A DNA stretch of 53,610 bases, filler included, from Jimgerdemannia flammicorona (taxonomy: Eukaryota): the NCBI GenBank assembly GCA_003990765.1. It is 2 parts of 2 records of this genome, joined end to end, with 100 filler letters (N's around TTAATTAATTAA, not from the genome) between each part and the next. Parts side by side here need not be neighbours in the genome. Positions count along the whole stretch, not along the records: positions 1 to 26,759 come from RBNJ01000698.1; 1 more part is not named here. One strand, given 5' to 3'. The notes below the pieces were generated by a model, which searched no databases, was not told the DNA's origin, and saw nothing but the letters and a program-made list of their open reading frames with translations. Position 1 is the stretch's first letter; each line of letters begins with the position of its first letter. Shown here in pieces: positions 1,446 to 44,454 of the stretch. Made by a program: the position numbers and the translations under genes.

Positions 1446-1771
1446 TATATTATTAAATTAAAAAAATCTTATTAAAAATTTTATTTTAAGAATTTTAATT
1501 AAAAATCTTATTAAAATTTATATAACTATTAATTATATACTATATAATTTAAAAATCTGATTTAAATATTATAATTAAATATCTATCTTCTAATTTTTAT
1601 TCTAACCCTAACCCTAAACCAATTATAATCTAACCATAACCCAAACCCTAACTATATATATCATAAAAAGAAAAATATATATATATATATAATGAAAATA
1701 AAAATCAAATATATATAATTTTTATAAATAAAATTATTTATAAAATATTATAACTTAAAAAATATTAATAT

Positions 1772-2239
1772 TGTAATGTAGTAGACACTTACTCTTGAAA
1801 GTATGTTGGATTTTTGTATCTTGAATACTTTATCTTCTCTGACTCCTTGGAATCCTTGGAATGTAGGGGTAGATGAGTTTGAAGTGTATCTGCCTGCAGG
1901 CTTACTAGTTCCTTTGCTATCTCTTTACTTTTGAACTATTTCGATCTGAGGTTTATTCACTTTAAGATACTGGGTTATTTATACAAGTTTTGCTAACTAT
2001 AAGGTAACTAAGTAATGGCTCATTTTGTAAGTGTTGAATATTTTAACATCTGCTAAGATTTCGCTGATTGTGAAGATTCTAACATCTCCTAAATCTTTGC
2101 AAACATTAAAGTTTCTGCACTTTGCGGAATGTGGCTACTATTTTTATGAGGCTAAGCTATATTGGAAATTGAATTCAGGTACTGCGATCAAATGTCTAAT
2201 TCCTCTATTTCATATTACTAATTCAGATCAGCCATTACA
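1772..2239 (-). repeat. 3' LTR of copy A1
   Basis: TG...CA ends; direct repeat of 7931-8398; minus-strand TATAAATA and AATAAA; purine tract AGAAGGAAGA (2240-2249, minus) abuts it. Confidence 0.95.
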
Positions 2240-2280
2240 TCTTCCTTCTGAATAGATGATTTATCTCAGGAGCATCCTAT

Positions 2281-2740
2281 TCACTCAAATTCCCAGGCTT
2301 CTACAATTTGTATTTCCTTATTGTATAATTTGTGTCATTACATCCTTCCAATGTTGTCTCTTAACATATCCAAAGTCTCCTGGGGTTACTCCTCGGAAAT
2401 GGGCTAAAGCTGACTTGTTATCTTTGAATAACTTGTGTACTCTTTTTGCAATTGTAATCTGAGTGTAAGAGAGCTGACATTCTCTAATCCAGTCTTATTT
2501 TCCCATCTTCAGTTTTGAATTCAGTGGCTGTTCCAACTTGAAGTATTCCTGAAACTCAGTTCAGTTCTGGTAGGCCTTGAAATGTGAGATTTGTGATAAG
2601 TGTGTTTGCACTATATTCTAGATGCTGTTGAAGAATTCTTCTATTGTTGGTGGCTTAGTAGAACACCACTATCTTTCAATGGCTTGCTGGGCTGCACTAG
2701 TAATTCTGAGGGCAGCAGTATTACTTCATTGACTGGTCAT
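2281..2740 (-). pseudogene. Disrupted copy of the family A accessory ORF (between integrase and PPT)
   Basis: Aligns with 15183-15644 (LRITSAAQQAIER...EAWEFE*); contains stops and indels. Confidence 0.75.
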
Positions 2741-2744
2741 GATA

Positions 2745-5700
2745 CTTCTTGAGTCAGTTTTGGTAGATAGTAGTGGGGATGATTGTATCTGAGAGTTTTT
2801 GTGACCATGAGGCTTCTACCATGTTCCAATACACCAGGACTTTGTCTCCTATCTTGATAATCTCCAGGGGTTTGTGGGTTTTTTCTGCATTTTTCCATTG
2901 TAGTGTCTGTACCTTTGTTATGTAATCCTCAGCCTTCTTTCTGATTTGGTGTAGTCTCTGTATTTCTCCATCCACATGTTTCCATATAGCATCTCTATTG
3001 AATGATAGGGTTTCTTGAGAACTTTCTTCTCTGAATAGCATTTCTCAAGGAGTAAAGTGGGTACTTTGTGATCTGATATCTTGGAGAGCAGATAATGCTA
3101 TTGGCAGATAGTGATCCCAGTTTTCATAGTTATTGCAGATCTTGGCAATAACATTCTTGAGAGTCTTGTTGGTCCTTTCTGCTTGTCTGTTTCCTTAAGG
3201 GTGATAGGCTGTAGTCTGAATGTGCTGGATCTTGTACTTCTTGTAGAGAACCTCAAAGAACTAGTTCACAAATTCTGTTCCTCTATCTGTAGTTACTTGT
3301 ATTGGGGTCTTGAACCAGCAGATGATTTCTTTGTGCAAGAAATCAGCGATTGACTGTGCATTGGTTTCCTTGAGGGGTCCTGCTTCTATTCACTTTGTAA
3401 AAAGGTTTACAATGATAATGATATATCAGTTACCAGTCAGGGTCAAGGGTAGAGGGCCAATCACATCCATTGCTATGTAGGCAAATGGTACTGGTTCTAT
3501 ATGTGCTGATTCTGGGGCTTGGTTTTATTGGTCTTGTTTCTGTTTCTGGCATTTGTTGCAGTTTTTGACAAATTGTCTGATATCTTTCTCCATTCCTGGC
3601 CACCATATCATTCTTCTTACCTAATCGTATGTATTCATTCCTCCTAGATGGCCAAGTTCATGTACTGATTTCATTGCTTGCTCCTTCTTATGCTCTGGTA
3701 TGACTAGTAGTTTTTCTTTCTTCAGTGTTTGTCCATCAGTTTCAAATTGTTTCCAAGTTCTGTTGATAATTGTTTGTGTCCATTATTCCAGATGTTGGGG
3801 CATCTTTCACTGTCCCAGATATGTGATAATTCTGTAGTAGAGCTCCTTATTTATAATTGATTTGTTGGTTGGAGGTGTTTCAAGATGTCCGTGAGAAAGC
3901 ATCTGTATTGGAATTTGTTCTTCCAGGGCAGTATACAATGGTTACATCATAGGCTTGTAACTTCATTATCCATCTGGCATAGATTCCTTTGGGTTGTCCA
4001 GTTGTCAGTAGCTAGGTGAGAGCTGAGTGGTCTATCTGAATGGTGAAGTATCTTCCAGCCAGATAGTAGTGGAACTTTTCCACAGCCCAGATGACTGTGA
4101 GGTATTCCAACTTGTAGGATTCATATTATTTTTCAGCTCCTTGGGTTCCTCAGCTAAGGTATGTAATGACATACTCTTTTTTGTCTTTCTTTTGAGCTAG
4201 AACTGCTCCTAGTCCTTGTGCACTTGCATCTGTCTGAAGGATAAACTCTTGAGTCCAATTGGGTTGTCTGAGGATGAGTGCCTGAGTCAGTCTGACCTTG
4301 AGTTCATCAAATGCTTTTTGTTGTCTACCAGTCCACTGGAACTTAGTGTCCTTTTTGTTGAGTTTGTAGATTGGACCTGCAATATTGGAGAATCCTCTGA
4401 TAAATCTGTGATAGTAGAAGGCAAGTCCCATGAAGGCTTGGGCTTCTGTAACAGTAGTGGGCCTTGAGTATACTGCTACTGCTTGTATCTTGAGGGGGTC
4501 TGTGTGCATTCCATCTCAATTGATAATATGGCCAAGGTAGGAGATCTTGATTTCTGCAAATTTGCATTTTTTGGGCTTGATATACAGGCCGTACTTTCTC
4601 AGTCTTTCTATTATCTGCTGTATGTGCTGCAGATGTTCCTCAGGTATCTTGCTGTAGATAATTATGTCATCAATATAAACCATCATCCATCTTCCTATGT
4701 CATAGTGGAAGATTTTGTTCATCATTTGCTGAAAGCTTGCTGGTGCATTGTACATCCCAAATGGCATTTGTAGGTAGATGTAGGTTCCATCTAGGGTGAT
4801 GAAGGCTAACTTTTCACTTGCCATCTCTGTGAGTCTGATTTGGTGGAATCCTGAGTATAAGTCCAAGGTGCTGTAGTACTGTGCTTCATCTTCCAGTGTT
4901 ATAAGGATATCACTGATGAGGGGCAGTGGTTGGCGATCCTTCTTAGTAACTGCATTGAGCTTTCTATAGTCAACACAGAGTCTTGGGGTGAATTCTCCAG
5001 GTTTGCTTCCTTTTTTTGGGACTAGTACAACTGGTGAAGACCAGGGGCTGCTGGCTTCTTTGATAATACCAGCTTCTTCTATCTGTTTGATTTCTTCTCT
5101 GAGCCATTCTCAGTAGGCTGGTGGGATAGGTCTTGCCTTCTGGTAAATTGGTTTGGTGTCTCCAGTATCTACCTCATGATAGTAGTATGGGATCTTTCTC
5201 TTGATATCCTTAAAATCCATGGTGAGGACATCCTTGAATTTGTGGAGTATTTTCTTGAGTTCCTCCTTGAGTGGAAATTCATTTCCAATGGTGTAACTGT
5301 GCTTGTTTGTGACTTCCTCCTTCTTATGCTCCAGTTCAGTAATCTTGGTACTGGTGAATACTCCTCTTCTTGTGGATCTGAATCCTTTCTTTCCTCTTTT
5401 CGTTTCCTCCAAATTCTTGACTTCTATGATCCTTGGTTGTAGGATTGGAAAGATCAACATCTGTGCCAATCGGTCCTTCTTCTTGACTGGAAATGGGATT
5501 GTAGGATTGTGATTCCTAACAATGAGCAGGATTTCTCCAGTATAGTCAGAATCGATGACTCCTCCTTCAATCGTAATTTCGCTTCTGACCAGGCTGCTTC
5601 TTGTCTTGAGGATCCTAACATAATCCTTTGAGATAGTCATCTCCAGTCCAGTTATGAGTAGGGTGGTTGTTTGGAGTTCTAGTACAGCTTCTTCTACTGT

Positions 5701-7836
5701 GGCGATGTCCATTCCAGCTGCATTTTCTGACTTGTATTCTGGCAAGACTGCATCAGGGTGGGTCCTTCAGATCTTGACCTTAATTTCTTCTTCATCATCA
5801 CTATCCTCCAGGAGGGCTGGTAGTTCATCATCTTCCTCCTCCTTCACTTCTCTGACCTGTTTTTTGAGAGCTTTCTGTTTTCTTTCCTGGTGGATTTTCT
5901 TGATTCTGATGGTGCACTGGTAGCAATCATTGACATGCTCCATATAGTACATCTTAATTCCATAAGAACAGACTCCTTGTGATATATAGCCTTCTGCAAT
6001 CTTCTTACACCATTCTTCTTCGCTCATCTGTCCAACTTTCTTCTTCAGAGTAGTCACCATATAAGTTTCCTCTTGCTCACTCTCTTCTTCCTCCATGTCA
6101 GGCAAGACTCCTTTGTTGACATTGATGGGAATTTGTATCTTCTGTCTCCAGTAGGTGATTTGCATCTTCTGGGCATTGAGATTGATTACTGCCCTGGCTT
6201 TGTGAAGCTATTGATTACCGATGAGGATGTCATAGTTGGTGACATTGGTTACAATTACATCTACTGGGATGGTTGCTCCTCTAATCTTGATGGGGACTTC
6301 TCAGATCTTTCCCAGAGGGGTGGCTCTTGTGCCATCTGCTGTGACAAAAACCAACTTGGTTGCTTCTTCAACTTCCCAGCCTAGGCAGTCTGCTGCTTTC
6401 TTGCTAAGGAAACATCCTCCTGCTCCAGTATTGATGATGGCTTCAAAGACTCTATCTTTGATTTGGCATATTGCATAGGCAGAGGTTTTGCAATTGTCTT
6501 CACTTTCTTCTTCTGAGTCCTCTTGAATGTTGTTGGCCTCAGTTATCTTTCATCCTTACTTCTTGGTTGTTTTGGCAAGTCCAAACCTCATTTGTTGTCT
6601 AAATGTTGGTATTTCTACAAGCTGACCAAAGGTTGCATTGACCTTTTGTTAGCCAAGATCCTTGAAGATATCATACTTGAAAGTCTTGGTCTTGCGAAGT
6701 TTCTTTTCTTTTTCTCCTTCACTGGCTGGAGTAGTTTCTTAGATAATATCTTGAACTGCTTGCTCCAGCTCCATATCTTTGTCCATCTCTTCAGCTTGGC
6801 TTTTGGTGGCTGTTTCTATCTGCTTTTCTACTGGGTTCTTCTTGGGTCTTCCTGGTGGTCTCTTGTAGAGTTCTTTGTGAACATTCTTCTTGGTAGTCTG
6901 AGCAGAATAGGTCTCCTATTCTTCTTCATCAGAATCTCCAATTTCCTCGAAGGTAATTGTATTGACCTGCTCCCTGTTGTATAGCATTGCTTGGTTGAGC
7001 CTTGTGTGCTTGGTTTTGCTCATACATTCATAGGAGTAGTGGTCTTCTTCTCCGCAGGTATAGCAGGTATCTTTCTTTTTATCTGAGGTGACAGCAAACT
7101 TTTGAACTGAGCAGCAGTTTCTTCCTTGGATTTCTTTTACCATGTCTTCCAGGTGGACAGTCATTTCAGCGAACCTCTTGGTAAGTTCCTCTATAGGGTC
7201 ACTATTCTTTTGCTACTCTGTAGTTTTTGACTGAGATATGTTTTACTTGATCATTGTAGTAGAGATCACACTGGTTGCCTTTGGTGTTTTAATTCTAACT
7301 CCTGTGACTCTTTCTATTGTATGGTCTTGTGGGTGTCTGGCTGTCCAATATCACTGAGCATAGGTGACCTTCTGTAGCAGATCCAAGACTACTGGTGATG
7401 AATAGATGGCCATGGCTATCTCTGGGTGAACTCCTTTCATGAAGGTTGCTTCGGCTACTTAATCTCAGATAGCAGCAGCATAATCTGTGAGGATTATCTG
7501 ATATTGAATTCTGGTATAGAATGTGTTTGGATCCTCACTTATTTCTTGGCATATTGTGTTGAGCTGATCCTTCAGGGCTTGCTTGATCTCATCTGTATAA
7601 TATATATTTCAGAGCCAGGTCTTCTGTACTGTCAGTATAGCATCAGCATCATTTCCTGCATGAGTTGTGGCTATGAATACTGCTCTGGCAGAACCTTGTA
7701 GGCTGAAGGGCATGAGGGCTACTTGCTGTACTGCTGTCAGAGTCCTTACAGCAGCATACTGCTCGAAATCATCAATGAAGGTAATGATTGATTCATCTGA
7801 GATATACCCATGGAATACTGATGGTCTCATATCCAT
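2745..7836 (-). pseudogene. gag-pol polyprotein of copy A1 with many nonsense mutations
   Basis: Zinc knuckle CYTCGEEDHYSYEC (~7025-7066); protease motif read as IINTGAGG (D>N, ~6415-6440); RT 4516-5200 (MPFG, YIDD); RNase H ILQTDAS; integrase 2750-3700. Confidence 0.92.
5370..5775 (-). pseudogene. dUTPase domain within A1 pol, between protease and RT
   Basis: Trimeric dUTPase motifs AAGMDI, RSSL, GVIDSDYTGE, RLAQ, RGxKGF. Confidence 0.92.
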
Positions 7837-7930
7837 TTTGTCTGGGTATTGGGGCTCAGTTTGTATAGTTGCTCAGGTAGTGGCAGTTGTTTATTATTTG
7901 TCTTGAATTACCAGCCAATGGGCACCAAGT

Positions 7931-8398
7931 TGTAATGTAGTGAATGCTTACTCTTGAAAGTAAATTGGATTTCTGTATCTTGAATACTTGATCTTCTCTG
8001 ACTCCTCAGAGTCCTTGGGATGCAGGGGTAGATGAGTTCAAAGTATATCTACCCACAGGCTTACTAGTTCCTTTGCTATCTCTTTGCTTTTGAACTATTT
8101 TGATCTGAGGTTTATTCACTCTAAGATACTGAGTTATTTATATAAGTTTTGCTAACTATAAGGTGGCTAAGTAATGGCTCATTTTGTAAGTGTTGAATCT
8201 TTTAACATCTGCTAAGATTTCGCTGATTGTGAAGATTCTAACATCTCCTAAATCTTTGCAAACATTAAAGTTTCTACACTTTGTGGAATGTGGCTGCTAT
8301 TTTTATAAGGCTAAGCTATATTGGGAATCAGATTCAGGTATTGCAATCAAATGTCTAATTTCTCTGTTTCATATTACTAATTCAGATGAGCCATCATA
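7931..8398 (-). repeat. 5' LTR of copy A1
   Basis: Direct repeat of 1772-2239; followed on the minus strand by ACT-TGGTGCCCATTGG (PBS-like). Confidence 0.95.
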
Positions 8399-13457: not shown

Positions 13458-14669
13458 TTTTGAAAAGTGCGGTGCTGGAAGGGCTGTGTGAAAAATCGTT
13501 CCGAACAAGTCATGTAGCACATCAACTGACCTCCTCACTACCAAAAACGCTGGAATGACGATATCGTTGGCCCCAAAATATAAGTACTTAATATTTATAG
13601 AAAACTATAATTAATATCAATTTAAAAGATACATTATATATTATAATTATTATATTTTAAATTATATTCTTTTAACTAGTGCTTCCAGACGAATCAATCA
13701 ATGAAAATCCATATTCTTTAGTAAACTACATTTATCTAAAATTTAAATTAAATTAAATACTTAATTAAATTTAATTTATATTTTTAAAATAAATTGACTA
13801 CTTTTAATTTCAATCTGTATTATAGATGAATATACTAATAAAAATTATATGTAATACATATATTTATCTTAGTAAATATTTATTTATATTTATAATTTTA
13901 ATATATTAAATTTGATAATTATTTATTATATTTATAGTATTTATATTGAAGTTACTTAGTAAACTTTATTTTATATTTTTACTTATCTTATAATCTATAA
14001 TCTATATAAATTTATATATCATTAAGTTAATTATAAAAATATTAATTTTTTTTTTATTTTTTTTTTATTTTTTATATATAAATATATATAATTATATAAC
14101 TTTATAGTTATATAGATAAATTTGAATAATATTATTATTCAGAGATATATTAAAAATATAAACTTATATGTAAAATACTATTTATATACTCTAATATCTA
14201 TTTCTATATTTAGAGATTTATTTATATACTTAAAGATTTACTTATATATTTAAGAATCTCTAATCTAAGATATGATTTTACTCATAATTATAGTTATGAT
14301 AGTATTATAGTTAGTTAACTATTCTGTCAGTTATAATTTCAATTATTATCTCTATATATAGTATAATATACTAGCTTAATAAAGACAAATTACAAAGTTA
14401 GAGAGCTGTATAGTTTGGCTTAAGCTTCTAGTTACTTTGTCAAAAATAATAAAAAGTTTAATAGTTTTAGGTATAAGAAATAGATATAAGTTCTATTAGT
14501 ATAATGTAGATAATTTTGATAAGTTTCTAATTCAACAATCTGATATAATACAGATTTTTCAAAAATAGTAAATAATGTAGATAATGTAGATTCTTTTTAA
14601 ATTAGCAGACTTTTCAAAATAGTGGACTTCTCTTGAGTAAAGCTATATCAAAGACTGTTTCATTTATAT

Positions 14670-15145
14670 TGTAACATAGTAGACGCTTACTCTTGAAAAT
14701 ATGTTGGATTTCTGTATCTTGAAAACTTGACTGTTCTGACTCTCGCAGAGTCTCTTGAAGTTGCAGGGAAGGGTGGGTGAGTTCGAAGTGTATCTGCCTG
14801 CAGGCTTACTAGTTCCTTTGCTATCTCTTTGCTTTGAACTATTTCGATCTGAGGTTTATTCACTCGAAGATACTGGGTTATTTATACAAGTTTGCTAGCT
14901 ATGAGAGGGTGGCTAAGTAATAAATGAGTCATTTGGACTTTGTCGAAACATTTGAACAATGTCTAAATGCTATACTAAATCGGGGTATCTGATTTGGATA
15001 ATGTCTAAAATTTAGACAATGTCTAAGAATTTAGATAATGTCAAAATCGAGGACTGCTAACTATAAGGCTATACTACTTTGGGAATGGGTGCGATCAAGT
15101 GTCTATTCCCTATTTCCTTCTTCCTAATTCGGCTATACCATCACA
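14670..15145 (-). repeat. 3' LTR of copy A2
   Basis: TGTAAC...TCACA; first ~250 bp match the A1 LTR; TATAAATA at 14879-14886 and AATAAA at 14855-14860 on the minus strand; PPT AGGAGGAAG adjacent. Confidence 0.9.
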
Positions 15146-15182
15146 ACTTCCTCCTAAATGGATGGTCTCGTCTCTGAGGCAT

Positions 15183-15644
15183 CTATTCAAACTCCCAGGC
15201 TTCAACCGTCTGTATGGTCTTGTACTGTGTAATTTGCTATATGACTGTTTCCCAATGATGTCTTCTCACTTTCTCAAAGTCGGTAGGGATTACTCCTCTC
15301 AGGTGGTCTATCGCTGCTTCATCTTCTCGGAATAACTTGTGGATCCTTTTGGCAATAGTGATCTGTGAGTGGGAGAGTTGACACTCGGCAATCCAGTCCT
15401 TCTTGGTCTTTGATGGATCCTGATTGAGCATCTGTCCAAGCTTGAAGTACTCTTGGAACTCTGCATGATACTGATAGGCTCTAAAGTGTGAGATCCGAGA
15501 GAGATGCATCTGTACAATACTCTGAATATCCTCATAGTATGCCTCTATGGTCAGAGGCTCAGTGGTGTGCCATTGTCTTTCGATGGCTCTTTGGGCAGCA
15601 CTAGTGATCTTGAGTGCCATCGCAGTACTTTTATTACTGGCCAT
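15183..15644 (-). pseudogene. Family A accessory ORF (~153 aa, one premature TAG at 15237), unknown function
   Basis: ORF 15237-15644 reads on through one stop to EAWEFE*, the same end as in copy A1. Its ATG overlaps the last codons of pol. Confidence 0.75.
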
Positions 15645-18600
15645 GATATTTCTTGAGTCAGTTTCGGTGAATAGTGGTGGGGATTATTGTGTCTGAGGGT
15701 TTTCATAGCCAAAAGGTAGTCCCTTTTATATCTTGCACAAGGTGAGGTCCTTCCCACTTGGGCTCTAGTTTTCGTGACTATGAAGCTTCTACCATGTTCC
15801 GATACACCAGAACCTTGTCTCCTATCTTGATAATCTCCAAGAGCTTGTGGATCTTTTCTGTATTCCTCCGTTGTAGTGTCTGCACCTTGGTTATGTAATT
15901 CTCAGCTTTCTTCCTGATTTGGTATAGTCTCCGTATTTCCATGTCCACATGTTTCCATACGGCATCTCCATTAGATGATAGGGTTCCTTGAGAACATTCT
16001 TCTCCAAACAGCATTTCTCAAGGGATAAAGTGGGTGCTTTGTGATCAGATATCCCGGAGAGCAGATAATGCTATTGGCAGATAGTGATCCCAGTTCTCAT
16101 AGTTATCACAGATCTTGGTGATAACATTCTTCAGGGTTTTGTTGGTCCTTTCTACTTGTCCATTTCCTTGGGGGTGATAGGCTGTGGTCCAAATGTACTG
16201 GATCTTGTACTTCTTGTAGAGAACCTCAAAGAGCTGGTTCACGAATTCTGTTCCTCTGTCTGTAGTTACTTGTGTTGGGGTCTTGAACCGGCAGATGATT
16301 TCCTTGTGGAAGAAATCGGCAATTGACTGTGCATTTGCTTCCTTGAGAGGTCCTGCTTCTATCCACTTCGTAAAAAGGTCTACGATGACAATGATGTATC
16401 AGTTACCAGTCAGGGTCAAGGGTAGAGGGCCGATTACATCCATTGCTATATGGGCAAATAGTACTGGTTCTATGTGTGCTGATCCTGGGGCTTGATTCCA
16501 TTGGTCTTGTTTCTGTTTCTGGCATTTGTCACATGTCTTGACGAATTGTCTGATATCTTCCTCTATCCCTGGCCACTATATTGTTCTTCTTGCCTTGTCA
16601 TATGTATTCATTCCTCCTAGGTGGCCAAGTTCATATACTGATTTCATCGCTTGCTCCTTCTTGTGTTCTGGTATGACTAGTAGTTTTCCTTTCTTCAGTG
16701 TTTCTCCATCAGTTTCGAATTGTTTCCATGTCCTGTTGATAATCGTTTATATCCATTCTTCCAGATGTTGGGGCATTTTTCGCTGTCCCAGGTATATGAT
16801 GATTCCATAGTAGAGCTTCTTATTCATGATTGATTTGTTGGTTGAAGGTAGTTCGAGGTGTCCGTGAGAGAGCATCTGCATTGGAATTTGTTCTTCCGGG
16901 GTGGTGCATGATGGTTATATCATAGGCTTATAACTTCATTATCCATCTGGCATAGATTCCCTTGGGTTGTCCAGTTGTCAGTAGCCAGGTGAGAGCTGAG
17001 TGGTCCATCTGGATGGTGAAGTATCTTCCGGCCAGATAGTAGTGGAACTTTTCCACAGCCCAGATGACTGCAAGGCATTCCAACTTGTAGGACTCATATT
17101 CTTTTTCAGCCCCTCAGGTTCCATGGCTAAGATATGCAATGACATACTCTTTTTTGTCTTCTTTTTAAGCCAGGACTGCTCCTAGTCCCTGTGCACTTGC
17201 ATCTGTCTGAAGGATAAATTCTTGGGTCCAATTGGGTCATCTGAGGATAGGTGCCTGAGTTAGTCTGACCTTGAGTTCGTCAAATGCTTTTTGTTGTCTG
17301 CCAGTCTACTGAAACTTGGTATCCTTTTTGTTGAGTTCGTAGATTGGGCCTGCGATATTGGAGAATCCTCTAATAAATCTGCAATAGTAGGAGACAAGTC
17401 CCATGAAGGCTTGGGCTTCTGTGATGGTAGTCGGCCTTGGGTATGCTGCTACCGCTTGTATTTTGAGAGGGTCTGTGTGTGTTCCATCTTGATTGATGAT
17501 ATGGCCAAGATAGGAGATCTCGATTTCTGCAAACTTGTACTTCTTAAGTTTGATATAAAGGCCATGTTGTCTTAGTCTCTCCATTATCTGTTCCTCGGCT
17601 GTCTTACTGTAGATGATTACATCATCGACATAGACCATCATCCATCTTCCCATGTCATAGCGGAAGATTTTGTTCATCATTCGCTGAAAGCTTGCTGGTG
17701 CATTGCACATTCCGAATGGTATTCGTAGGTAGATGTAGGTTCTGTCTGGGGTGATGAAGGCTGACTTTTCACTTGCCACTTCTGTGAGTCCGATTTGGTG
17801 GAATCCTGAGTATAAGTCCAAGGTGCTGTAGTACTGTGCTTCGTCTCCCAGTGTTATAAGAATGTCACTGATGAGCGGCAGTGATTGGCAATCCTTCTTG
17901 GTGACTGTATTGAGCTTTCTGTAGTCGACACAGAGCCTTGGGGCAAATTCTCCAGATTTGCTTCCTTTTTTTGGGGCTAGTACAACTGGTGAAGACCAGG
18001 GGCTGCTAGTTTCTTTGATGATACCAGCTTCTTCCATCTGCTTGATTTCTTCTCTGAGCCATTCTCGGTAGGCTGGCGGGATGGGTCTTGCCTTCTGATA
18101 AATTGGTTCAGTGTCTCCGGTATCTACCTCGTGATAGTAGTGTGGGGTCTTTCCTTTGATATCCTTGAAATCCGTGGCAAGGACATCCTCGAATTTGTGG
18201 AGTATTTTCTTGAGTTCCTCCTTGAGTGAGAATTTGTCTCCAATGATGTAACTGTGCTTGCTCATGTTTTCCTCCTTCTTATACTTAAGTTCAGTGATCT
18301 TGGTGCTGGCAAATACTCCTCTTCCTGTGGATCTGAATCCTTTCTTTCCCCTTTTCATTTCCTCCAGATTCTTGACTTCTATGATCCTTGGCTGTATGAT
18401 TGAGAAGATCAACATCTGTGCCAATCAGTTCTTCTTCTTGACTGGGAATGAAATTGTAGAATTGTGATTCCTAGCAATGAGTAGAATTTCTCCAGTATAG
18501 TCTGAATCAATGACTCCTCCTTCGATTGTGATTTTGCTTCTAGCCAGGCTGCTTCTTGTCTTGAGAATCCCGACATAATCCTTTGGGATGGTCATCTCTA

Positions 18601-19107
18601 GTCCAGTTGCAAGTAGGGTAGTTGTCTGGGGTTCGAGTACAGTTTCTTCTACTGTAGCGATGTCCATTCTGGCTGCGTTTTCTGACTTGTATTCTGGCAA
18701 GACTGCATTACGGTAGATCTTTCGAATCTTGACCTTGATTTCTTCATCATCACTGTCCTCCAGGAGGGCTGGTGGTTCATCATCTTCCTCCTTCTCTTCT
18801 TCTCTGATCCGTTTTTCGAGAGCTTTCTGGCTTCTTTTCTGGTAGATCTTCCTAGTTCCGATGGTGCACTAGTAGCAATCATTGACATGTTCCATACAGT
18901 ACATCTTGATTCCATGAGGACAGACTCCTTGTAGGGCATAGCCTTCTGCAATCTTCTTGTACCATTCTTCTTCACTCATCCATCTGACTTTCTTTTTCTT
19001 TGGGGTAGTCACCATATAAGCTTCCTCTTGCTCACTCTCTTCTTCCTCCATATCGGGCAGGACTCCTTTGTTGACATTGATGGGAATTTATATCTTCTGT
19101 CCCTGGT

Positions 19108-21171
19108 TGTAAGCACACAACCTCCAAGCCACCGAAATTACATGTCACCCTCTGAACAAGCCACTGAAATCACATGCGACCTCTGAACAAACCTGGAAAT
19201 CACCTGCTTGATCACGAAGCTGAGTTAAACCGAAGTCACAGCGCACAAAGCTGAGTCAATATGAAGTCACGGAATACAAGATCTACACAAACGGAACCTT
19301 ACCAATCAGGACCAAATGCATATATACCAAGCACCGAGATACATCAAATCAGAAAACCAAAACAAATAACAACCACAACTTCCAAATACACAAACATGAC
19401 CACCGAGATCTACAACCATATCCGTACTGACATTTGGAATGCCATTGTCAACCGAGCCACACCCCCTCTACCCCTCATGAATATCCATAGCCTGGCACTC
19501 CTCTACTTCATGGAAGCCCGATGGAATGCCCTAAACATGCTTAGCGAGGCCTACCGAATCAGACAAATCTCAAGCTACTACCAGATTGGCCGCCTCCTGG
19601 AAGACATGGTCGAACACCACCATGATACAGACATTACCCAGATGTCTCAACACCAGAAGCTCATCGCCCGCAAACATCGAGAACTCTTCTATGAGTACAA
19701 CACCTTTATTCCCCGCCTCCAAGTTACTACCAGTGAAATGGTTGCTACCCTGTCCTATGGCCAAATCGATGACATGATACAAGAAATCAACCACAAGTAC
19801 CTCGAATATGTCCAGACCACAGACAGAACCTTCCCGCACCCTGATGACCACATCCTGCAAATGCCTCAAGTTGGATATGCCATGAAGGATGTCTATGATA
19901 TAATCCACTTCGATGAAGACAAAGCAGAAGACAATGATCCCTCTGACACCAACATGACCTCTAGCCAAGGATCTCTGCCAACCCTGATCACTCCGCCAAC
20001 CTTGCCGATAAACTTACAACAGTTCATAACTGCATATGAGACTTATTGGGACAATGACCACTGGCACGAATACCAACCCGTGTTCACCCCCAATTACTTC
20101 AATTACAATGAAGAGACCAGAGAATACAACCTGTACCTTCAGACAACCCTCGAGATCGAACCAACCACTCCACTACCCAAGTACAAGTGACACGAACCAC
20201 AGCCACCAGCATACTATAACCCTGCAACTCATAGTGCCGTAATCTATAAAAGGTACACAGATAGTGAATCTGATGAAAGCGAAGACAATACACCCATCCT
20301 TCGCCCACCAACATCTTATCCAGCATACGAAACAGATGATGCTATCCTGTAGGATGGAGATGAAGTTCCAATGTATTACTACCTCAGCGAACAAGGAGAA
20401 GTAATCCACGAACCACTCCTTCTAGACGACTACTTCATCAGAGATGATGCAATCAATGGTGATATCATCGAAGACTACCCAGACAGTGTCTAAACCTATA
20501 AATAGTCTAGCAGTCATAGTATAGATAGATTAGCCTTATATGATGTGACTGTGAACTGACTCAGCAGTCAGATGATCCCTTGACATGTCAGATCACACTT
20601 ATACTACATGACTGCATTCCGACTCAGTAAGGCACTTAGTGCTACATCCATATTTAGCATAGTCCAGATAGCCCCTCACTAGTATAAATACCCCCTCCCC
20701 CAGACCTCAGAATCTCAGACTTGAACAATCTGAACACAACTTCTGAGTACTTCCCCACAATATCCCTTTACACAAATACTCCTAGTATAGCAATATCATG
20801 AATAGCAAATAAACCTATTCCATAACCCACAAACCACTCTTAAGTAAATCTGCTCCCTGTTAGGTCCTACTCCTAACCCTGTCACGAAATTTCCTAATTG
20901 GGTATTGTCTGCAGCAATACGCCAATTCAACTAAGCTGGTCTTAGTTTCTTGAACTTCCTGAAATACGGAAAATCCTGAACATCCAGAACTAGTCCAGAA
21001 AAGGACTTTGATTGAGACGTCAACCCGATCTTGAAATCAATAAGCATAGAGGACGTACTCCATACAAAATTGATCTTGACTATAAGAAAACGGTCTTCCA
21101 GAACATCCAGAATATCCAGAAAACCTTTCCAGAACTACGTAATGGTTACCCTAAAAAGTAATCCTCTTACA
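19108..21171 (+). repeat. Putative 2064-bp 5' LTR of element B
   Basis: Terminal inverted TGTAAG...CTTACA; PBS 3 nt downstream; TATAAATA at 20683-20690; AATAAA at 20808-20813. The second LTR is not in the window. Confidence 0.7.
19396..20493 (+). pseudogene. LTR-encoded accessory ORF of element B (~365 aa if two stops are read through)
   Basis: ORF 19261-20190 (ATG 19396). The frame continues through TGA 20188 and one TAG to TAA 20491-20493. N-terminal part resembles the family A accessory ORF. Confidence 0.7.
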
Positions 21172-21174
21172 ACT

Positions 21175-21186
21175 TGGTAGCAGCGG
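21175..21186 (+). promoter_or_regulatory. Primer-binding site, initiator tRNA-Met type
   Basis: TGGTAGCAGCGG directly after LTR-terminal CA; complementary to the AGCAG-type iMet acceptor stem plus ACCA. Confidence 0.75.
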
Positions 21187-21211
21187 TTTACAATCCAATT
21201 CCACTTCAAGA

Positions 21212-24200
21212 TGCTTCCTTACCCCGCTACAAACCCCTCTGCGAATTCCTACAAGTTGGTATAAAGCCCAACCTCTGAACTGGAATTTATCTGAACCATC
21301 TGACAATCTGGAGAGAATTGAACCTGACATACAAGGACAATTTGACCTCCACACCTACAACAAGTGGGACAAACTTCATTCTAAGAAAGAAGTACTCCGG
21401 TTAAACTAGCAAATAGGCAAAACCCTATTCACCGAACTCCTTGCACTACACCCAGCAAGTCAAGATGAAGAAGGTCTTATTGAAGCCTTCTTTACTCTTC
21501 TCAACAAGAGTTTTGTCAGCTCTACAAATCTGAGCGACCTAGGATAACCAGTAGCAGTCTTTCTAGCCTTAGTTCCTCACGAAGCCCAAGCCTCTGTAGC
21601 CAAGTGGCTCAACTCTACCGACTTTCACCATACCAGGACCAAGACCACCTTATACTACCGATTCCAGAACAGCAAGGCCTGCCATATCCTTAAAGAAGAA
21701 GCAAGAGAAACCCTTCATCAACTCTCTGACCCCAAACCTGAAGCAGGCCCTGCTACAGCCCTACCTGAATCTGAAACCAATACTGAACCTGAACTTGACT
21801 TTGAATTAAGTCCATCTGAAATCAGATATACAACTGACTCTGTCTACTTTGACACCGAGCAAACCCAATTACATGGGGACCAAACTGAAGAAGAGGAGGA
21901 GTATCTCACCGAATTTGATCCTGGATACACCACTGAAGGAGACACATGCTCATCAGGACAGAATACACCTATACAGCAACAAACAGCTATCTATTAAGCC
22001 CTCACTCCAGATCCACAACTACTACTCCAGTAACTTACACAGACCCAAAGAACCCCATCACACTCTGCACCAGTACCTCAAGTAGTACCAGTAACACTAC
22101 TACCAGCAGTCCAACCACCTCCAGCAATCAACATGGCGAACCAACAGATTCTGGATCTCACAGCCCAAGTAGCTATAATGGTAGCAACTATCACTACCTT
22201 AGCTGAACAGACCTGACCTACCAAAAATCTGAGCCTACCTACCTTCAATGGTACTGCACAAGAAGTCCAAAGCTTCATTAATATAGTTGACACCAACTTC
22301 GAAGCCAATCAATGGACTAATGAGTGAGTTGCTGACTACGTTCTGACAAACAATCAAGACCACACCCTGGAACAACTCTTTGCTACAACTACAGCCTATG
22401 TCCGCCGAGTTGTTACATTCTTCCGAGGACCTGCCGAAGAATAGTGGCGAACCCTTCCTGAAAAACCCCTCACATGGGATACCTGACCTACAGTAGTTGC
22501 TCAGAATGCAGCAAACAATGCCCCAGGATATGGAGTCCATCCTGCAGCCCCTGGACTCAAACAACTCATGATTGCTCAATATCGCAGCGAGACCATGATT
22601 GCCGAATCTCGAGTAAAACTCTGCAACCTCAAATTTGATGTATATGGCAAAGAAGAATTTGAAACCTTCTGTACAAAACTCGAGTCACTCCTGAACACTG
22701 TTGGCCTAGGATACATTGCCAATGACGAAGCATGAAATGGTACAAGAGCAGACTATTTATTCGATGCCCTGCCTGAATGGCTTACTAGAAAAATCCGAGA
22801 ACAAGGCTGCCCAGTTGGTTGCGATCACCAACAATGATGCCTGGCAAGAATCAAGACTATGGTCAAGCGAATTCTAACAGCTGGACCAATTCTGCCCCGA
22901 AGACAATTTAACAACAAGAAAAGAACTTGGACCAAGAAAGAAGAACCCAAGCATGAAGCATCTCAAGCTCCCTCCACATCCACCTCTTGGACACCCAGAA
23001 ATCATGAACCCACCCAGCCAAGTACCTTCAAGAAACTCACTGAAGGCGAAAGGAATGAACTTCAAAGAAGCGGAGCATGCTTCTATTGCCAAAAGACAGG
23101 ACATATGGCCAGTGCCTGCCCAAACTGAAAACCTCGAACAGCAACACGAGCAACTGTTACAACTCTGCACCACCTCAACAACCTGACCACCAAAATACTG
23201 GACTTTGTCAAGTTAAGACAAACTGCTAAGGCCCCAACCAAAGGAAGTCAAAAAGCAGCTGGATATGACCTGTATGCAGCCAAAGAAGCTACAGTTTCCA
23301 ACCGAGAAGTCAAACAAGTCTATACAGGAATCAGTATCCAAATCCCTGAAGAACATGTTGGAAGAATATGCTGTCACAGCAGCCTAGCACTGAAAGGACT
23401 CTCAGTAGAAGGAGGAGTCATTAACGAGGATTACACAGGCGAAATCATTATCCTCATTCGAAACCACAGTTGGACACCCTTCAAGATCCCTATTGGCTTC
23501 TGTATTGCCCAGATCCTATTCGAAAAGATCGAGTCAACCCTGACAGTCAAGGAAGTCCCTGAACTACTGCCCACCATCCGAGGATCCAAAGGATTTGGCT
23601 CATCAAACAAGGCCACAGTCCAACCTACCATGAGCAAAGAAGAACAATTCTACAAGAAGATCGAAGATGGATATGTACTAAGTGGCCGATGCCCTCATGG
23701 TATTGGAATGTACTCTTCCCGAATGATCGATGACTGCTTCTCTTGTATCAACAAACTGGCTCAAAGAAGAACCAACAGAAGGAAAGCTCCTATAACTGAA
23801 ATCACCAGTATTGGATCAGACAAACTGCTCACCCTTAAGGCTTTTGTCAATGGAGCACCTGTCAAGATTATGATAGACAGTGGTGCCTCAGGCAACTTCA
23901 TCAATGAAGAGACAGCCAACAGACTCAAGGTCTTCACCTCTCCAGTACAGCAAACTCAAGCAGTTGCTACAGCTGATGGAACCTCACATATTATTAGCAA
24001 GAAGTCCGCAATCTACCCTTCCAAATTGGCGACTACCGAGTACATGTTACCCTCCAAATCGTACCACTTCCTGACAATGAAATCATCCTTGGAACCCCAT
24101 GGTTAAAACAAGAGAACCCCATGATTGATTGTGTAAACCATTCTCTGACCATCAAGAAAGGATGCCATAACTTCAAACTACAAGGCGAAAAGGACCCACT

Positions 24201-26759
24201 CAACTCTAGTGACCCTGGACCAAAGATCACCCACATCAATAAGCTACAACTCAAGAAATTGGCCAAGAAATGCCCTCTCTTCGCCATCTCCATCTGACCA
24301 TCCAAAGGAGAACCCGAGAACTCTGAAGAAGATTTTTCCAAGACTGACAGCCGTGTCAGACCACTACTCCAGAAATTCCGAGACATATTCCCAAAGAAGC
24401 TCCCAAAAGGCCTACCTCCCAAATGAGCAGTAGACCATGCCATCAAGACTATCCCAGATGCCAAACCAGCCTTCAAGTCAATCTACCACATATCTCCGAG
24501 AGAAATTGATACACTCAAGAAGGAAATCGACGAACTCCTAGAATAAGAATTCATCAGACCCAGCGTATCACCCTATAGTGCACCAGTCCTCTTTGTTGTC
24601 AAGAAAGGAGGAGACCTGCGAATGTGCATTGACTACCGCGATCTCAATGAGCAGACCATCAAGAACTATTGCCCACTACCAAGGATTGATGAAATATTCG
24701 ATAGACTCACCAACCCACAATTCATGAGCTCCTTTGACCTGCGAAATGGTTACTGGCAAATTGCTATGAAAGAAGAAGACATCTACAAGACAGCCTTCCG
24801 AACTCGCTATGGACACTTTGAGTTCCTGGTTATGCCCTTTGGCTTAACTAATGCTCCAGCAACCTTCCAGATACTGATGAATACCATCCTGCATCCATAC
24901 CTGGACAAATTCATTGTTGTCTACATTGACGACATCCTAGTCTTCAGCAAAACCCTGGAGGAACATCTTGAATACCTTGAACTAGTACTACTGAAACTCC
25001 GAGAAAACAGACTCTTTGCAAAACTCAGCAAGTGTGAATTTCTTCTGAAAGAAATTCAATTCCTTGGACACATTGTCACTCCGAATGGAATCAAAGTGGA
25101 CCCCAGCAAAATCTCTGCAATCAAAGATTGGCCCACACCTAAGAAGCTTAAAGACCTCCAGTCATTCCTGAGATTAGCAAACTATTATAGGTGATTCATT
25201 GCCAACTTTGCTAAAATCACCACTGCCCTCACCCAAATGACCAAGCACAACAAGAAACAAGAACAACCTTGGACCATAAGAAAAGAGAAAGACTTCAACA
25301 ATCTTGTAAATTGGGGACCTGAACAAGATACTGCCTTTCAAGTGCTGAAAGATGCCCTGATAACCACACCAGTACTTCAAGTGGCAAATTCTGCCCTACC
25401 ATATGAAGTTACTACTGATGCCTCTGACCTAGCTCTTGGAGCAGTGCTCATGCAAGAAGGACACCCTGTGGCCTATCACTCCCACAAGTTCAATGATGCT
25501 GAAATCAACTACGCAATTCATGAGAAGGAAATGCTAGCCATCGTGGACACTCTGATCAAATGGTGACCATATCTAGAAGGAGCACACTTCACTATATTAA
25601 TAGACCACAAGTCACTAGTCAACATCAAGACCCAGGCTACCCTTTCTCGAAAGCAAGCTAGATGGATGAAAGTCCTCACCAACTTTGACTATGAAATTCA
25701 GTACCACCCTGGCAAGGAAAATATTATTACTGATGCAATCTCCAGACCACCAATCGAAGAGGTTATCCAAACTCTGACCTTGGTTACCGACACTATCATG
25801 GAACAAATCATCGCAGCATATGTTGATGATAAAGAAGCTCAAGCACTCCGAGAAATCCTGAACAATGATGATGCCAACAAGTATACCTGGTACAATCAAT
25901 ACCAACTCAAGGACAATGCTATCTACTACAAGGACAGACTGTATGTCCCAAACAACCGAGACCTCTGAAGGACTATCCTATTCAAATGTCATGATGCCCC
26001 TACAGCTGGGCATTTAGGATTTGACAAATGCTACAAAGTTATCTCCTGAAACTTCTATTGGCCCCGCATGGCAGATCAGCTCAAAACCTATATTACTTCC
26101 TATGATGCCTGCCAACGAAACAAGTCCTCAACACTAGCAAAACCTGGCTTACTTCACCCTATCCCAGTACCATCTGCAAATTGGGAACAAATCTCTATGG
26201 ACTTCATTATACAACTACCCCAAACCAAGAATGGGAAAGATGCAATTGTTGTCTTTGTGGACTACCTCAGCAAACAAACCCACTTTGTGCCTACTACCAC
26301 TACTGCAACAACACCAGACATAGCCATACTCTTGTTTGACAACATCTTCCACTATCATGGTATTCCTAAGATCATTGTTAGTGACTGAGATCCGAAATTC
26401 ACCAGCCACTTTTGGAAAGCCCTCCATGTATACCTTGGAACAAAACTTGCACTATCCACAGCCTTTCACTCTGAAACCGATGGCCAAACCAAAAGAATGA
26501 ACTGAACTCTGGAACAAATGCTAAGGAACTATGTCTCCTACAGACAAGATGATTGGCATGAACACCTCACAGCAGTCGAGTTTGCCTATAACAACAGCAA
26601 GCAAGCCTCTCTTGGAATGACCCCATTCTTCGCCAACACTGGACAAAATCCAAACACCTCTTTGACACTTATCTGAACCACTGAAGAACCCTCCACAGTC
26701 GAAGCTGTTGAAGAATTCCTACTCCGAATGCGCAATCTAAGCCAGATCGCAATTGAGAA
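21212..26759 (+). pseudogene. gag-pol of element B (gag-NC-dUTPase-Zn motif-PR-RT-RNaseH-IN) with nonsense mutations and a frameshift near 24000
   Basis: One reading frame from ~21212 through the protease, interrupted by TGA/TAA/TAG; RT ORF 24622-25194; RNase H ~25390-25750; integrase HHCC and core from ~25950. Confidence 0.9.
23200..23606 (+). pseudogene. dUTPase domain of element B, between NC zinc knuckle and protease
   Basis: Manual translation: APTKGSQKAAGYDL...SSLA...GGVINEDYTGE...IAQ...RGSKGFGSS, in frame with gag and protease. Confidence 0.9.
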
Positions 26760-26859
26760 NNNNNNNNNNNNNNNNNNNNNNNNNNNNNNNNNNNNNNNNN
26801 NNNTTAATTAATTAANNNNNNNNNNNNNNNNNNNNNNNNNNNNNNNNNNNNNNNNNNNN
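26760..26859. other. Artificial contig-joining linker
   Basis: 100-bp N block with central TTAATTAATTAA (stops in all six frames); flanking contigs are 26759 and 26751 bp. Confidence 0.95.

Positions 26860-37432: not shown

Positions 37433-38656
<1,224 letters not shown>

Positions 38657-41023: not shown

Positions 41024-41090
<67 letters not shown>

Positions 41091-44376: not shown

Positions 44377-44454
<78 letters not shown>

Follow-up and report, generated by a model that had tools for sequence, protein, structure and literature searches.

Can two retrotransposon families share one accessory gene and keep it at different places? The question is raised by a 53,610-nt stretch of the Jimgerdemannia flammicorona assembly GCA_003990765.1 (positions 1-26,759 are RBNJ01000698.1), hereafter the window. 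Extra genes of LTR retrotransposons are raw material for retroviral accessory and regulatory genes, and few of them beyond env are understood. In the window, an initial annotation had proposed a single helical protein family in two retrotransposon families regarded as unrelated, encoded after integrase in one (ORF A) and inside the LTR in the other (ORF B). Both reading frames are where it had placed them (Table 1): the ORF A peptide lies in a minus-strand open frame (15237-15683) that stop readthrough extends to 15183-15185, and the ORF B peptide lies in frame 19255-20190.

Placement of the two ORFs

ORF A is found downstream of integrase in a dUTPase-bearing Ty3/gypsy element, where its ATG (15644) is still within pol, so that the two reading frames share 11 nt. 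Two elements of this family are present. Element A1 has decayed coding regions despite its complete structure, and element A2 is truncated at 19101, where it adjoins the LTR of element B. As had been claimed, the ORF occurs in both elements and both copies terminate at the same ...EAWEFE stop. In A2 this stop is separated from the polypurine tract by 27 nt, and the arrangement is identical in A1. The U3 region of the A2 LTR contains partly inverted repeats, which are candidate protein-binding sites. Family A and element B have the same ACT spacer between the LTR end and the primer binding site (PBS), and no tRNA gene for matching PBS assignments is present within the window. An Argonaute gene sits between A1 and A2; its fragment is nearest to human AGO1-4 (E 4e-66) and then to Arabidopsis AGO10 (6e-58), Neurospora QDE-2 being distant (9e-27).

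The location of ORF B inside an LTR could not be established from the window alone, as it contains no second B LTR: element B is interrupted by N runs (26760-26859) and its 3' LTR lies outside. This location is nevertheless supported by the TG..CA termini at 19108 and 21171, by the PBS-like site, and by metagenome contigs of related copies, which cease to be homologous at 19106/19108 and 21171. In four contigs, a purine-rich tract immediately precedes the LTR start, about 290 nt ahead of ORF B. The contigs compared are short pieces (153-779 nt; 1-15% divergent), which represent related copies rather than the organism or its habitat. A higher summed contig depth over 19037-21124 was set aside as evidence, because depth in contigs gives no basis for comparing one part of a stretch with another. 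Judging from the TATA boxes alone, ORF B probably lies in U3, since it is upstream of them. It would thus be copied along with every LTR.

Table 1. Coordinates, strand and main characteristics of the features discussed in the text.
Feature	Position	Strand	Characteristics
Element A1, complete	1771..8394	-	two 465-bp LTRs, 91.4% identical to each other
ORF A remnant, element A1	2281..2740	-	six in-frame stops, 2-nt gap; second ORF A subtype
A2 3' LTR, TGTGATGG...GTTACA	14669..15145	-	contigs break at 14669 beside PBS sequence
TATAAATA (TATA box), A2 LTR	14879-14886	-	
Five copies of 19-20-nt repeat, U3 of A2 LTR	14928..15045	.	partly inverted
A2 polypurine tract AGGAGGAAG	15147..15155	-	one base before LTR; read directly from sequence
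ORF A, A2 copy	15183..15644	-	153 codons; one in-frame stop (15237-15239)
ORF A 55-residue core aligning with ORF B	15297..15461	-	overlaps predicted homodimer interface (residues 40-94)
A2 pol	15686..19101	-	Cys/His motif, dUTPase, RT, RNase H, integrase
Element B 5' LTR, TGTAAG...CTTACA	19108..21171	+	2,064 bp; TG..CA ends, PBS-like site, contig breaks
31-32-nt tandem repeats, 5' end of B LTR	19125..19274	+	before ORF B
ORF B	19396..20493	+	365 codons; in-frame stops 20188-20190 and 20350-20352
ORF B core aligning with ORF A	19564..19722	+	
Second TATAAATA, B LTR	20497-20504	+	
TATAAATA, B LTR	20683..20690	+	context same as family A TATA box
PBS-like TGGTAGCAGCGG	21175..21186	+	three bases past B LTR end; ACT spacer common to family A
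Element B coding region	22137..26759	+	gag, dUTPase, Cys/His motif, protease, RT, RNase H, partial integrase

The two families are not unrelated, contrary to the initial annotation. Both are Ty3/gypsy, and they are 38% identical in RT, 37% in dUTPase and 56% in a 34-residue Cys/His motif (E 8e-14), which indicates distinct but related families. Inheritance of the ORF from a common ancestral element is thus at least as likely as its capture by unrelated elements. Similarly, the positions of the two ORFs are different on DNA, as had been stated, but probably equivalent on genomic RNA. With the order R-U5-PBS-gag-pol-...-U3-R, ORF A would lie just before the polypurine tract and ORF B just after it, so that both would occupy the same slot between pol and R. 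By their sequences, nothing separates the two layouts except whether the ORF precedes or follows the polypurine tract. The earlier suggestion that a shift of this tract could convert layout A into layout B fits both the proximity of ORF A to its tract and the purine tract that precedes the B LTR.

Coding status of ORF A and ORF B

The databases contain 18 relatives of ORF A (61-84% identity), four of which are intact 153-aa copies on separate contigs and five of which share the C-terminal ...EAWEFE; the C-terminal peptide is preserved across synonymous changes. Between ORF A subtypes, dN is 0.24-0.27 and dS at least 1.4 (145 of the 153 codons), with synonymous sites saturated. The resulting dN/dS, a check that had been proposed at the outset, is 0.08-0.17 and not near 1. 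ORF A is kept by purifying selection, as a separate ORF found in independent copies.

Divergence between A1 and A2 is uneven. Their RT sequences are 88% identical at the nucleotide level (dS 0.27-0.38), while identity is well below this value in ORF A (65%) and in the LTR (71%). This contrast indicates a mosaic structure, in which ORF A and the LTR appear to form a 3' module that recombines independently of pol.

Searches outside the family returned little. A profile search with ORF A against 1.84 billion representatives (E <= 0.001) gave five matches, of which three belong to its own family. P0013 and P0014 were dropped as relatives, because they are internally repetitive (5 and 4 matched stretches, respectively) and their scores are summed-repeat artefacts. 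Neither ORF had a usable family match in Pfam (E <= 1 and E <= 10), in PHROGs or among PDB sequences (both E <= 10). When the ORF A alignment was compared with metagenome and viral contigs, none of the 47 and 24 pattern matches, respectively, was confirmed; the ORF B alignment gave 312 and 20 pattern matches in the same two sets, again with none confirmed. By sequence, ORF A matches no described family or domain, as had been anticipated.

ORF B has only two relatives: P0010, 91% identical over the N-terminal part, and P0009, 65% identical over the tail, which reads through both stops of the window copy. One stretch of 311 codons is open, and gag-pol genes are as decayed as the accessory ORFs in the same copies. 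Taken together, these data support both ORFs as real coding sequences belonging to their elements.

Similarity between ORF A and ORF B

Whether the two proteins form one family, as proposed in the initial annotation, received a divided answer. BLASTP aligns them with 15 identities over 55 residues (E 0.059). Their Smith-Waterman score was matched by 221/5,000 and 231/5,000 shuffles (p ~0.045), and their semi-global score was equalled by 157/3,000 shuffles (p ~0.05). The recommended hhalign comparison was run on shallow alignments (11 and 2 sequences) and gave a probability of 2.8% (E 0.016). We rejected a by-eye extension of the alignment into the N-terminal halves, as these parts fail to align. 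The motif quoted for the family was built from the two ORF sequences themselves, and is thus no independent test.

The profile comparisons are more favourable. Among 715 window ORFs, ORF A and ORF B are reciprocal best non-self matches (E 0.082 and 0.021), and their real profile scores were attained by only 5/10,000 and 9/10,000 shuffles, although the next unrelated ORF in the scan with the A profile (E 0.14) comes near the value for ORF B (0.082). The order of predicted helices also agrees between the two models. By contrast, the search of the 1.84 billion representatives with the ORF A profile (E <= 0.001) did not retrieve any B-type protein. Conservation of the ORF B core relative to P0010 is non-significant (3 of 12 differences fall within the 54 aligned residues; p 0.17), and the gap-free ORF B stretch 57-101 was chosen post hoc. 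The similarity is thus marginal, and involves a 55-residue helical core.

These results are compatible with two histories. In the one that we prefer, both ORFs are true accessory genes of their elements and occupy the same RNA slot in two related dUTPase-bearing Ty3/gypsy families, an explanation to which we give an even chance overall. Homology of the two ORFs is itself about evenly balanced, and a homologous core would have been inherited with the other modules common to both elements. In the other history, which is a serious contender although somewhat short of even, the ORFs are unrelated and were gained independently at 3' ends, the core reflecting chance or amphipathic-helix convergence. 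The pairwise and hhalign scores speak for this second history, as do the near-equal score of another ORF against the A profile and the difference in length (153 versus 365 codons, ORF A having no long tail). In addition, the bdelloid rotifer study (PMC5408684) documents cases in which LTR elements acquired extra ORFs independently. It accounts less well for the reciprocal best matches, the rarity of equivalent profile scores among shuffles and the congruent helix order. Nor does it explain the equivalent RNA position, or the presence in both elements of two unusual modules, dUTPase and the Cys/His motif.

Predicted structure, possible role and known counterparts

Both proteins are predicted to be all-helical, in agreement with the initial annotation, but AlphaFold modelled them with low confidence (pLDDT 58 for ORF A and 54 for ORF B). 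In the structural searches recommended earlier, these query models gave no fold match at E <= 0.001 (PDB Foldseek, BFVD, VIA-wide), and the best Z values (5.8 for ORF A and 7.1 for ORF B) are in the noise range for helical models. The filovirus VP30 C-terminal domain and the RSV M2-1 core appeared in two ORF A lists, but they were rejected as being at noise level and absent for ORF B. No transmembrane segment was detected: hydropathy (19-residue Kyte-Doolittle mean) peaks at 0.19 and 0.39 in two relatives with an intact ORF A and at 1.02 in ORF B. No long hydrophobic helix occurs in either model. As had been argued, the sequences indicate that neither protein is an Env.

For ORF A (P0001), a symmetric homodimer held together by the best-conserved helices of the protein is predicted. 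The prediction scored 0.45, versus 0.00 for the best of three controls, with at least 78% contact agreement between runs and a partner pLDDT of at least 64. The mark used was reached by 21 of 30 microbial proteins solved as pairs and by none of 23 solved as single chains. The corresponding eukaryotic figures are 17 of 29 and 0 of 30, but only 1 of 7 for eukaryotic pairs without an older solved relative. The predicted interface (residues 40-94) is the most conserved block of the family. Such dimerisation is equally compatible with many other functions.

In ORF B, the N-terminal domain, about 130 aa long, is predicted to be helical; it is followed by an acidic, aromatic and proline-rich tail (residues 131-365; 232 aa) with a net charge of -35, 31 aromatic residues and 24 prolines. 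This sequence fits the layout of acidic activators, in which an acidic, aromatic-rich and probably disordered region is attached to a folded domain.

Among possible roles, the one that we tentatively favour is that these proteins may be nuclear dimeric regulators of the LTR of their own element. A spliced message or reinitiation would give rise to the protein from the 3' end of the element RNA. Its helical domain would bind, and its acidic and aromatic C-terminus would activate; this C-terminus would correspond to the 232-aa tail in ORF B and, in ORF A, to the brief conserved terminus ...EAWEFE. Repeats in both U3 regions, tandem and inverted, were counted toward this proposal, and the non-basic helical domains (net charge +1 and -4) and sub-threshold helix-turn-helix (HTH) leads against it. 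PF09039 (HTH_Tnp_Mu_2) was matched over residues 4-63 by 3 of 12 ORF A relatives, but at 13.0-14.8 bits for a cut-off of 20.5, and PF26215 (HTH_animal) was matched by none of four ORF B sequences at E <= 10. A language-model protein atlas offered HTH_animal for ORF B (score 0.78), and for ORF A it pointed to phage HTH-type regulators, with 165-170 features in common (score 0.95), all of them leads only. Beside the acidic tail of ORF B, these leads are the only pointers to the nucleic-acid-binding, transactivating or anti-silencing role raised in the initial annotation.

An extended version of the proposal appears rather unlikely as a whole. It holds that a dimer-forming regulatory module common to two dUTPase gypsy lineages crossed the polypurine tract in one of them, and acts as an LTR-specific transactivator co-diverging with its own U3 repeats. 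The regulatory gene would then be inherited and recombined together with the LTR on which it acts.

Several retroviral genes provide points of comparison. In HIV/SIV, nef overlaps U3, and Sag, which a vertebrate retrovirus encodes, is a type II membrane glycoprotein. The location of MMTV sag, inside the LTR and before the promoter, is that of ORF B but not of ORF A, which ends before the polypurine tract; like sag, ORF B would be a coding ORF in U3, placed at the 3' terminus of the genomic RNA and copied with the LTR. Unlike Sag, ORF B has no hydrophobic segment or detectable similarity to solved proteins, and element B has no env. A relationship to Sag or Nef received no support from PDB sequences (no match at E <= 10) or from folds, as only generic helical folds were retrieved (Z <= 7.1) with a low-confidence model. 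Foamy virus Tas/Bel1 and HTLV Tax are transactivators encoded 3' of env. By analogy, they resemble the regulator proposed here in being products of 3' accessory genes that act on their own LTR, and in combining binding with acidic activating parts, as suggested for ORF B. The likeness is one of layout, any activity of the two ORFs being wholly inferred.

Extra genes are also known from other LTR retrotransposons. Rodriguez, Kenefick and Arkhipova (2017, PMC5408684) describe additional ORFs ('ORF3') in bdelloid rotifer LTR elements. Some types are common to different retroelement groups, their distribution across lineages is read as modular gene sharing, and expression is described as typically occurring via spliced messages. 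Like these, ORF A is an extra family-specific ORF after pol in a dUTPase-bearing Ty3/gypsy-type element, and it sits between pol and the 3' R; the same holds for ORF B if the U3 placement suggested by the TATA boxes is accepted. In contrast, the rotifer ORF3s described there are of recognisable origin (env, GDSL esterase, DEDDy exonuclease, coiled-coil/TM), whereas ORF A and ORF B match nothing; in addition, ORF B is inside the LTR, and sharing between A and B is only marginally supported. Fungal Gypsy elements, as presented by Novikova et al. (2010, PMC2864245), vary in the place of dUTPase within Pol (N-terminus, C-terminus, or between PR and RT), and some are drawn with an 'add. ORF' of unknown function, which can be likened to ORF A and ORF B by description alone, without sequence or position. 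Finally, Sun et al. (2023, PMC10309623) report that the C. elegans element Cer1 encodes CERV, a novel accessory protein specific to its family, which is translated from a spliced mRNA and on which the export of genomic RNA depends. CERV is lineage-restricted, belongs to a gypsy-type element, self-assembles and regulates the expression of its own element; it differs in acting in genomic RNA export and in needing phosphorylation, and its sequence showed no relation to either ORF.

CERV also serves as a precedent for an alternative that we regard as improbable, although to be taken seriously, namely that the proteins are multimerising factors acting on RNA (export, stabilisation or packaging of unspliced genomic RNA), like CERV (PMC10309623) or retroviral Rev. 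The 3'-terminal position and the predicted self-association of ORF A suit such factors. However, neither ORF contains an arginine-rich or other basic tract, the net charge of their helical domains is +1 and -4, and no similarity to any RNA-binding protein was found in sequence or fold; the long acidic tail of ORF B would also suit activation better than RNA binding. Counteraction of host silencing, through RNAi or chromatin, which the initial annotation had suggested, is more doubtful still. It would account for strong selection combined with fast subtype divergence, but this is circumstantial, and the Argonaute gene between the family A copies is most likely a coincidence; we detected no similarity to known suppressors and no sequence feature specific to silencing. 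That the ORFs are chance open frames in non-coding 3' sequence and LTR, as the broken state of all three window copies (one, six and two in-frame stops) might suggest, is very hard to credit given the intact and readthrough relatives, the preserved C-terminal peptide and the equal decay of gag-pol, and is already contradicted for ORF A by its dN/dS.

Extra ORFs are already known as a class in LTR retrotransposons, but no earlier description of ORF A or ORF B was found in the open-access literature. ORF A is a selection-maintained, family-specific gene with no known relative outside its family, and its association with the LTR points to a 3' module (gene and LTR) that recombines apart from pol. 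Layouts A and B offer a natural before-and-after pair around the polypurine tract. If the two ORFs are not homologous, they are merely two further orphan retrotransposon ORFs, and ordinary. If they are homologous and self-regulating, these families would provide a simple, non-retroviral model for the origin of transactivator-type genes and for their co-evolution with promoters, and would demonstrate dispersal of protein-coding genes by solo LTRs. In the extended version of the proposal, rather unlikely as a whole, every B LTR, solo LTRs included, would be a self-contained protein gene with its promoter.

Two families with common modules

The window carries two Ty3/gypsy retrotransposon families with a dUTPase, A (copies A1 and A2) and B, whose features are collected in the table. 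Family A encodes gag, protease, a Cys/His motif, dUTPase, RT, RNase H and integrase. Family B, the start of which adjoins A2 directly, encodes gag from ~22137, then dUTPase, family A's Cys/His motif, protease, RT, RNase H and integrase. The family B integrase runs into N's, followed by unrelated, AT-rich sequence (GC ~0.21-0.33), so that the 3' end of element B is unreadable in the window; its missing 3' half may correspond to a gap or masked stretch rather than to a biological truncation.

Positions of the elements, their accessory ORFs and other features
Feature	Position	Strand	Details
Element A1	1771-8394	-	two 465-bp LTRs, 91.4% identical
Element A2	14662-19101	-	cut off at 19101
ORF A (A2)	15183-15644	-	after integrase
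LTR of A2	15145-14669	-	TGTGATGG...GTTACA
Family B LTR	19108-21171	+	TGTAAG...CTTACA
ORF B	19396-20493	+	365 codons, two in-frame stops
TATAAATA boxes	20497-20504, 20683-20690		downstream of ORF B
Protease, Cys/His motif and dUTPase	A1 5767-6549, A2 18425-19087, B 23129-24106		opposite order in A and B
Runs of N	26760-26803, 26816-26859		inside element B integrase; 44 N each, 12 bases apart
Argonaute gene	10340-13604	-	between A1 and A2
Epimerase gene	37925-38797	-	host-type, NAD-dependent epimerase/dehydratase (Pfam E 9e-48), unrelated to elements
Repeat array	50200-53000	-	long; encodes TPR_10/TPR_12 repeats; many DNA units of ~85-150 nt, 60-95% identity
Repeat array	31346-32613		~170 nt, tandem-like, 68-79% identical, no coding match
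Direct repeats	8496-9587 and 28435-29526		~1.1 kb, diverged (~67% identical), flanking elements
Direct repeats	382-784 and 7056-7471		~0.4 kb, diverged (~67% identical), flanking elements
Poly(A) tracts (three)	1-95, 41025-41090, 44377-44455		uninterrupted, ~65-95 nt

The initial annotation regarded the two families as unrelated, which is contradicted by their RT (38% identical, 83/218, E 9e-47), their dUTPase (37%, 33/89) and a 34-residue motif, EE.[WF]YKKI..GY.L.G.CPHGI.MY......DC (56%, E 8e-14). Domains are ordered gag-PR-motif-dUTPase-RT in family A and gag-dUTPase-motif-PR-RT in family B, protease and dUTPase thus being swapped around the Cys/His motif, which matches no Pfam family. Judged by these sequences, A and B are distinct families with unusual modules in common, which would make a third common module unsurprising.

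In the Argonaute gene, N, L1, PAZ, L2, MID and Piwi domains are spread across several frames by either introns or decay. The Piwi part most closely resembles human AGO1-4 (E 4e-66) and Arabidopsis AGO10, and is distant from Neurospora QDE-2 (9e-27).

ORF A and its LTR as a recombining module

The ORF A peptide originally proposed is present in frame 15237-15683 (minus strand). Its start codon (ATG at 15644), in the context ATCATGG, overlaps the pol end by 11 nt in A2 (26 nt in A1). The A2 copy has one in-frame stop (15237-15239); read through, it ends at 15183-15185 with the C-terminus ...EAWEFE, and is followed by 27 nt, the polypurine tract (PPT) AGGAGGAAG and the LTR. The arrangement is the same in A1, where ORF A is interrupted by six in-frame stops and has a 2-nt gap. 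In 5.8 billion proteins, a word-indexed search identified eight relatives (61-77% identity) among 12 candidates; two further ones came from 1.84 billion representatives searched in full with a HMMER profile, and eight more from a cluster look-up, for a total of 18 proteins, all on short contigs. Four of them (P0001, P0016, P0020 and P0022) are intact at 153 aa, five carry the C-terminal ...EAWEFE, and every relative extending to the position of the window's stop reads through it. These relatives split into two subtypes, corresponding to A1 and A2.

A1 and A2 have 87.5% identity in their pol regions and only 69.7% in the last kilobase (1764-2799 vs 14662-15703). For ORF A (65% nucleotide identity, 98 transitions to 63 transversions), we obtained a dN of 0.24-0.27, a dS of 1.4-3.4 and a dN/dS of 0.08-0.17 rather than near 1, based on 145 of 153 codons (the eight with stops or gaps being dropped) and with dS saturated and undefined by NG86. 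Its last eight codons show synonymous differences only. The corresponding values for RT (88% identity) are 0.07-0.08, 0.27-0.38 and 0.20-0.31, while the integrase end is 86.5% identical (39 transitions to 4 transversions) and the LTR 71% (69 to 62). Sequence divergence thus indicates that ORF A is a real gene under purifying selection, and that ORF A and the LTR form a 3' module that diverged much earlier than the pol now joined to it; family A elements are therefore recombinants.

Differences between the A1 and A2 pol regions (2794-6146 vs 15767-19101) are strongly biased towards transitions (367 vs 30 transversions), and 109 of the 275 C/T differences (40%, vs 25% expected) have A next. The same transition excess was observed in all four metagenome runs (contigs on 14600-22400). 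This suggests deamination-type (RIP-like or methylation-linked) mutation of repeats.

ORF B inside a long LTR

The second proposed peptide was found in frame 19255-20190 (311 codons), and ORF B starts with an ATG at 19396. Among its database relatives, P0010 matches the first 128 residues with 91% identity, and P0009, 65% identical to the tail, reads through both stops to the same endpoint. As the window holds no second copy of the ORF B/LTR DNA, boundaries were checked on contigs from four public runs with at least 85% likeness to the window. Matches begin at 19106 or 19108, after unrelated sequence, in four contigs of metagenome run X2 and two of run X4; in one X4 contig the match stops at 21171 and unrelated sequence follows, and two rearranged contigs rejoin at 19107/19108. 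The four X2 contigs have a common upstream sequence (agreement 0.98), ending in a purine-rich tract that immediately precedes the LTR, as a pol-PPT-3' LTR junction should look. The LTR end is followed by ACT and a primer-binding site (PBS)-like TGGTAGCAGCGG, an arrangement (...TTACA-ACT-TGG...) also found in family A with a different PBS. Termini, PBS-like site and contig breaks therefore define a discrete 2,064-bp LTR with ORF B inside, as initially annotated.

The position of the two TATAAATA boxes, the second of which is in family A TATA-box context, would place ORF B in U3. Genomic RNA would read pol - ORF A - PPT - U3 - R in family A and pol - PPT - U3 (containing ORF B) - R in family B, so that both ORFs would occupy one RNA slot and differ solely in the side of the PPT. 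The A2 U3 carries five tandem 19-20-nt units, partly inverted, and the family B U3 31-32-nt tandem units upstream of ORF B.

Possible common descent and role

The proposal of one protein family for A and B draws support from profile scores and little from pairwise comparison. BLASTP of ORF A against ORF B aligned 15/55 identities (18.9 bits, E 0.059), and the Smith-Waterman score was reached by 221/5,000 and 231/5,000 composition-preserving shuffles. Semi-global alignment of ORF B to the four intact ORF A proteins, which left the N-terminal halves unaligned, was equalled by 157/3,000 shuffles, and hhalign on shallow alignments (11 and 2 sequences) gave a probability of 2.8% (E 0.016). When every stop-to-stop ORF in the window with a length of 40 aa or more (715 in total) was scanned, each profile had the other ORF as its best non-self match: ORF B for the ORF A profile (E 0.082; next ORF 0.14) and ORF A for the ORF B profile (E 0.021; next 1.4). 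These scores were reached by 5/10,000 shuffled ORF B and 9/10,000 shuffled ORF A sequences. Among 1.84 billion representatives, the ORF A profile found no B-type protein at E <= 0.001; its five matches were three members of its own family and two repeat proteins, rejected as relatives. AlphaFold models, of low confidence (pLDDT 58.1 for ORF A, 53.6 for ORF B), are both all-helical, with the same helix order across the aligned core. We infer common descent with caution, homology being plausible and, in our judgment, evenly balanced.

Neither protein has a transmembrane segment, as first noted, or a match in Pfam, PHROGs or PDB sequences, and fold searches with both models gave generic helical matches only. 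The Mu transposase I-gamma DNA-binding subdomain appeared below threshold in 3/12 ORF A relatives (13-14.8 bits vs 20.5), and a language-model atlas linked ORF A to phage HTH-type regulators and ORF B to an animal HTH family, with scores that are leads only. Two copies of intact P0001 were predicted to form a homodimer (score 0.45, vs 0.00 for the best of three controls; at least 78% of contacts in agreement between runs; partner pLDDT at least 64). The mark used is reached by 21/30 microbial proteins solved as pairs and 0/23 single chains, and in eukaryotes by 17/29 pairs (only 1/7 without an older solved relative) and 0/30 single chains. The interface, predicted to be symmetric, comprises residues 40-76 and 84-94; it constitutes the most conserved block of the ORF A family and overlaps the core aligned with ORF B; the dimer test thus supports, without proving, self-binding of ORF A. 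The ORF B tail (232 residues) has a net charge of -35, 31 aromatic residues and 24 prolines.

Retroviral 3' transactivators offer an analogy for LTR-regulating accessory genes. Because of this analogy, the binding-domain and acidic-tail architecture and the co-inherited LTR repeats, both proteins might be dimeric regulators of their element's own LTR, a role we consider rather doubtful; they would be translated from a spliced message, or through reinitiation where stop and start overlap. The main functional rival, by analogy with CERV of Cer1 (PMC10309623), would be export or packaging of genomic RNA. Silencing suppression, the anti-silencing role initially put forward, has no specific support.

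The kind of gene is already known, since extra ORFs and ORFs within LTRs have been described. PMC5408684 reports extra ORFs in bdelloid rotifer LTR retrotransposons, of types common to different retroelement groups and dUTPase-bearing lineages, which ORF A and ORF B resemble as additional ORFs in such elements. For fungal Gypsy elements, PMC2864245 notes a dUTPase whose position varies, as well as an 'additional ORF with unknown function', and MMTV sag, like ORF B, lies within an LTR (PMC12548423). The novelty lies in the particular orphan family (or two families) found here, in the pair of layouts with the ORF before or after the PPT, and in a module of gene plus LTR that recombines.
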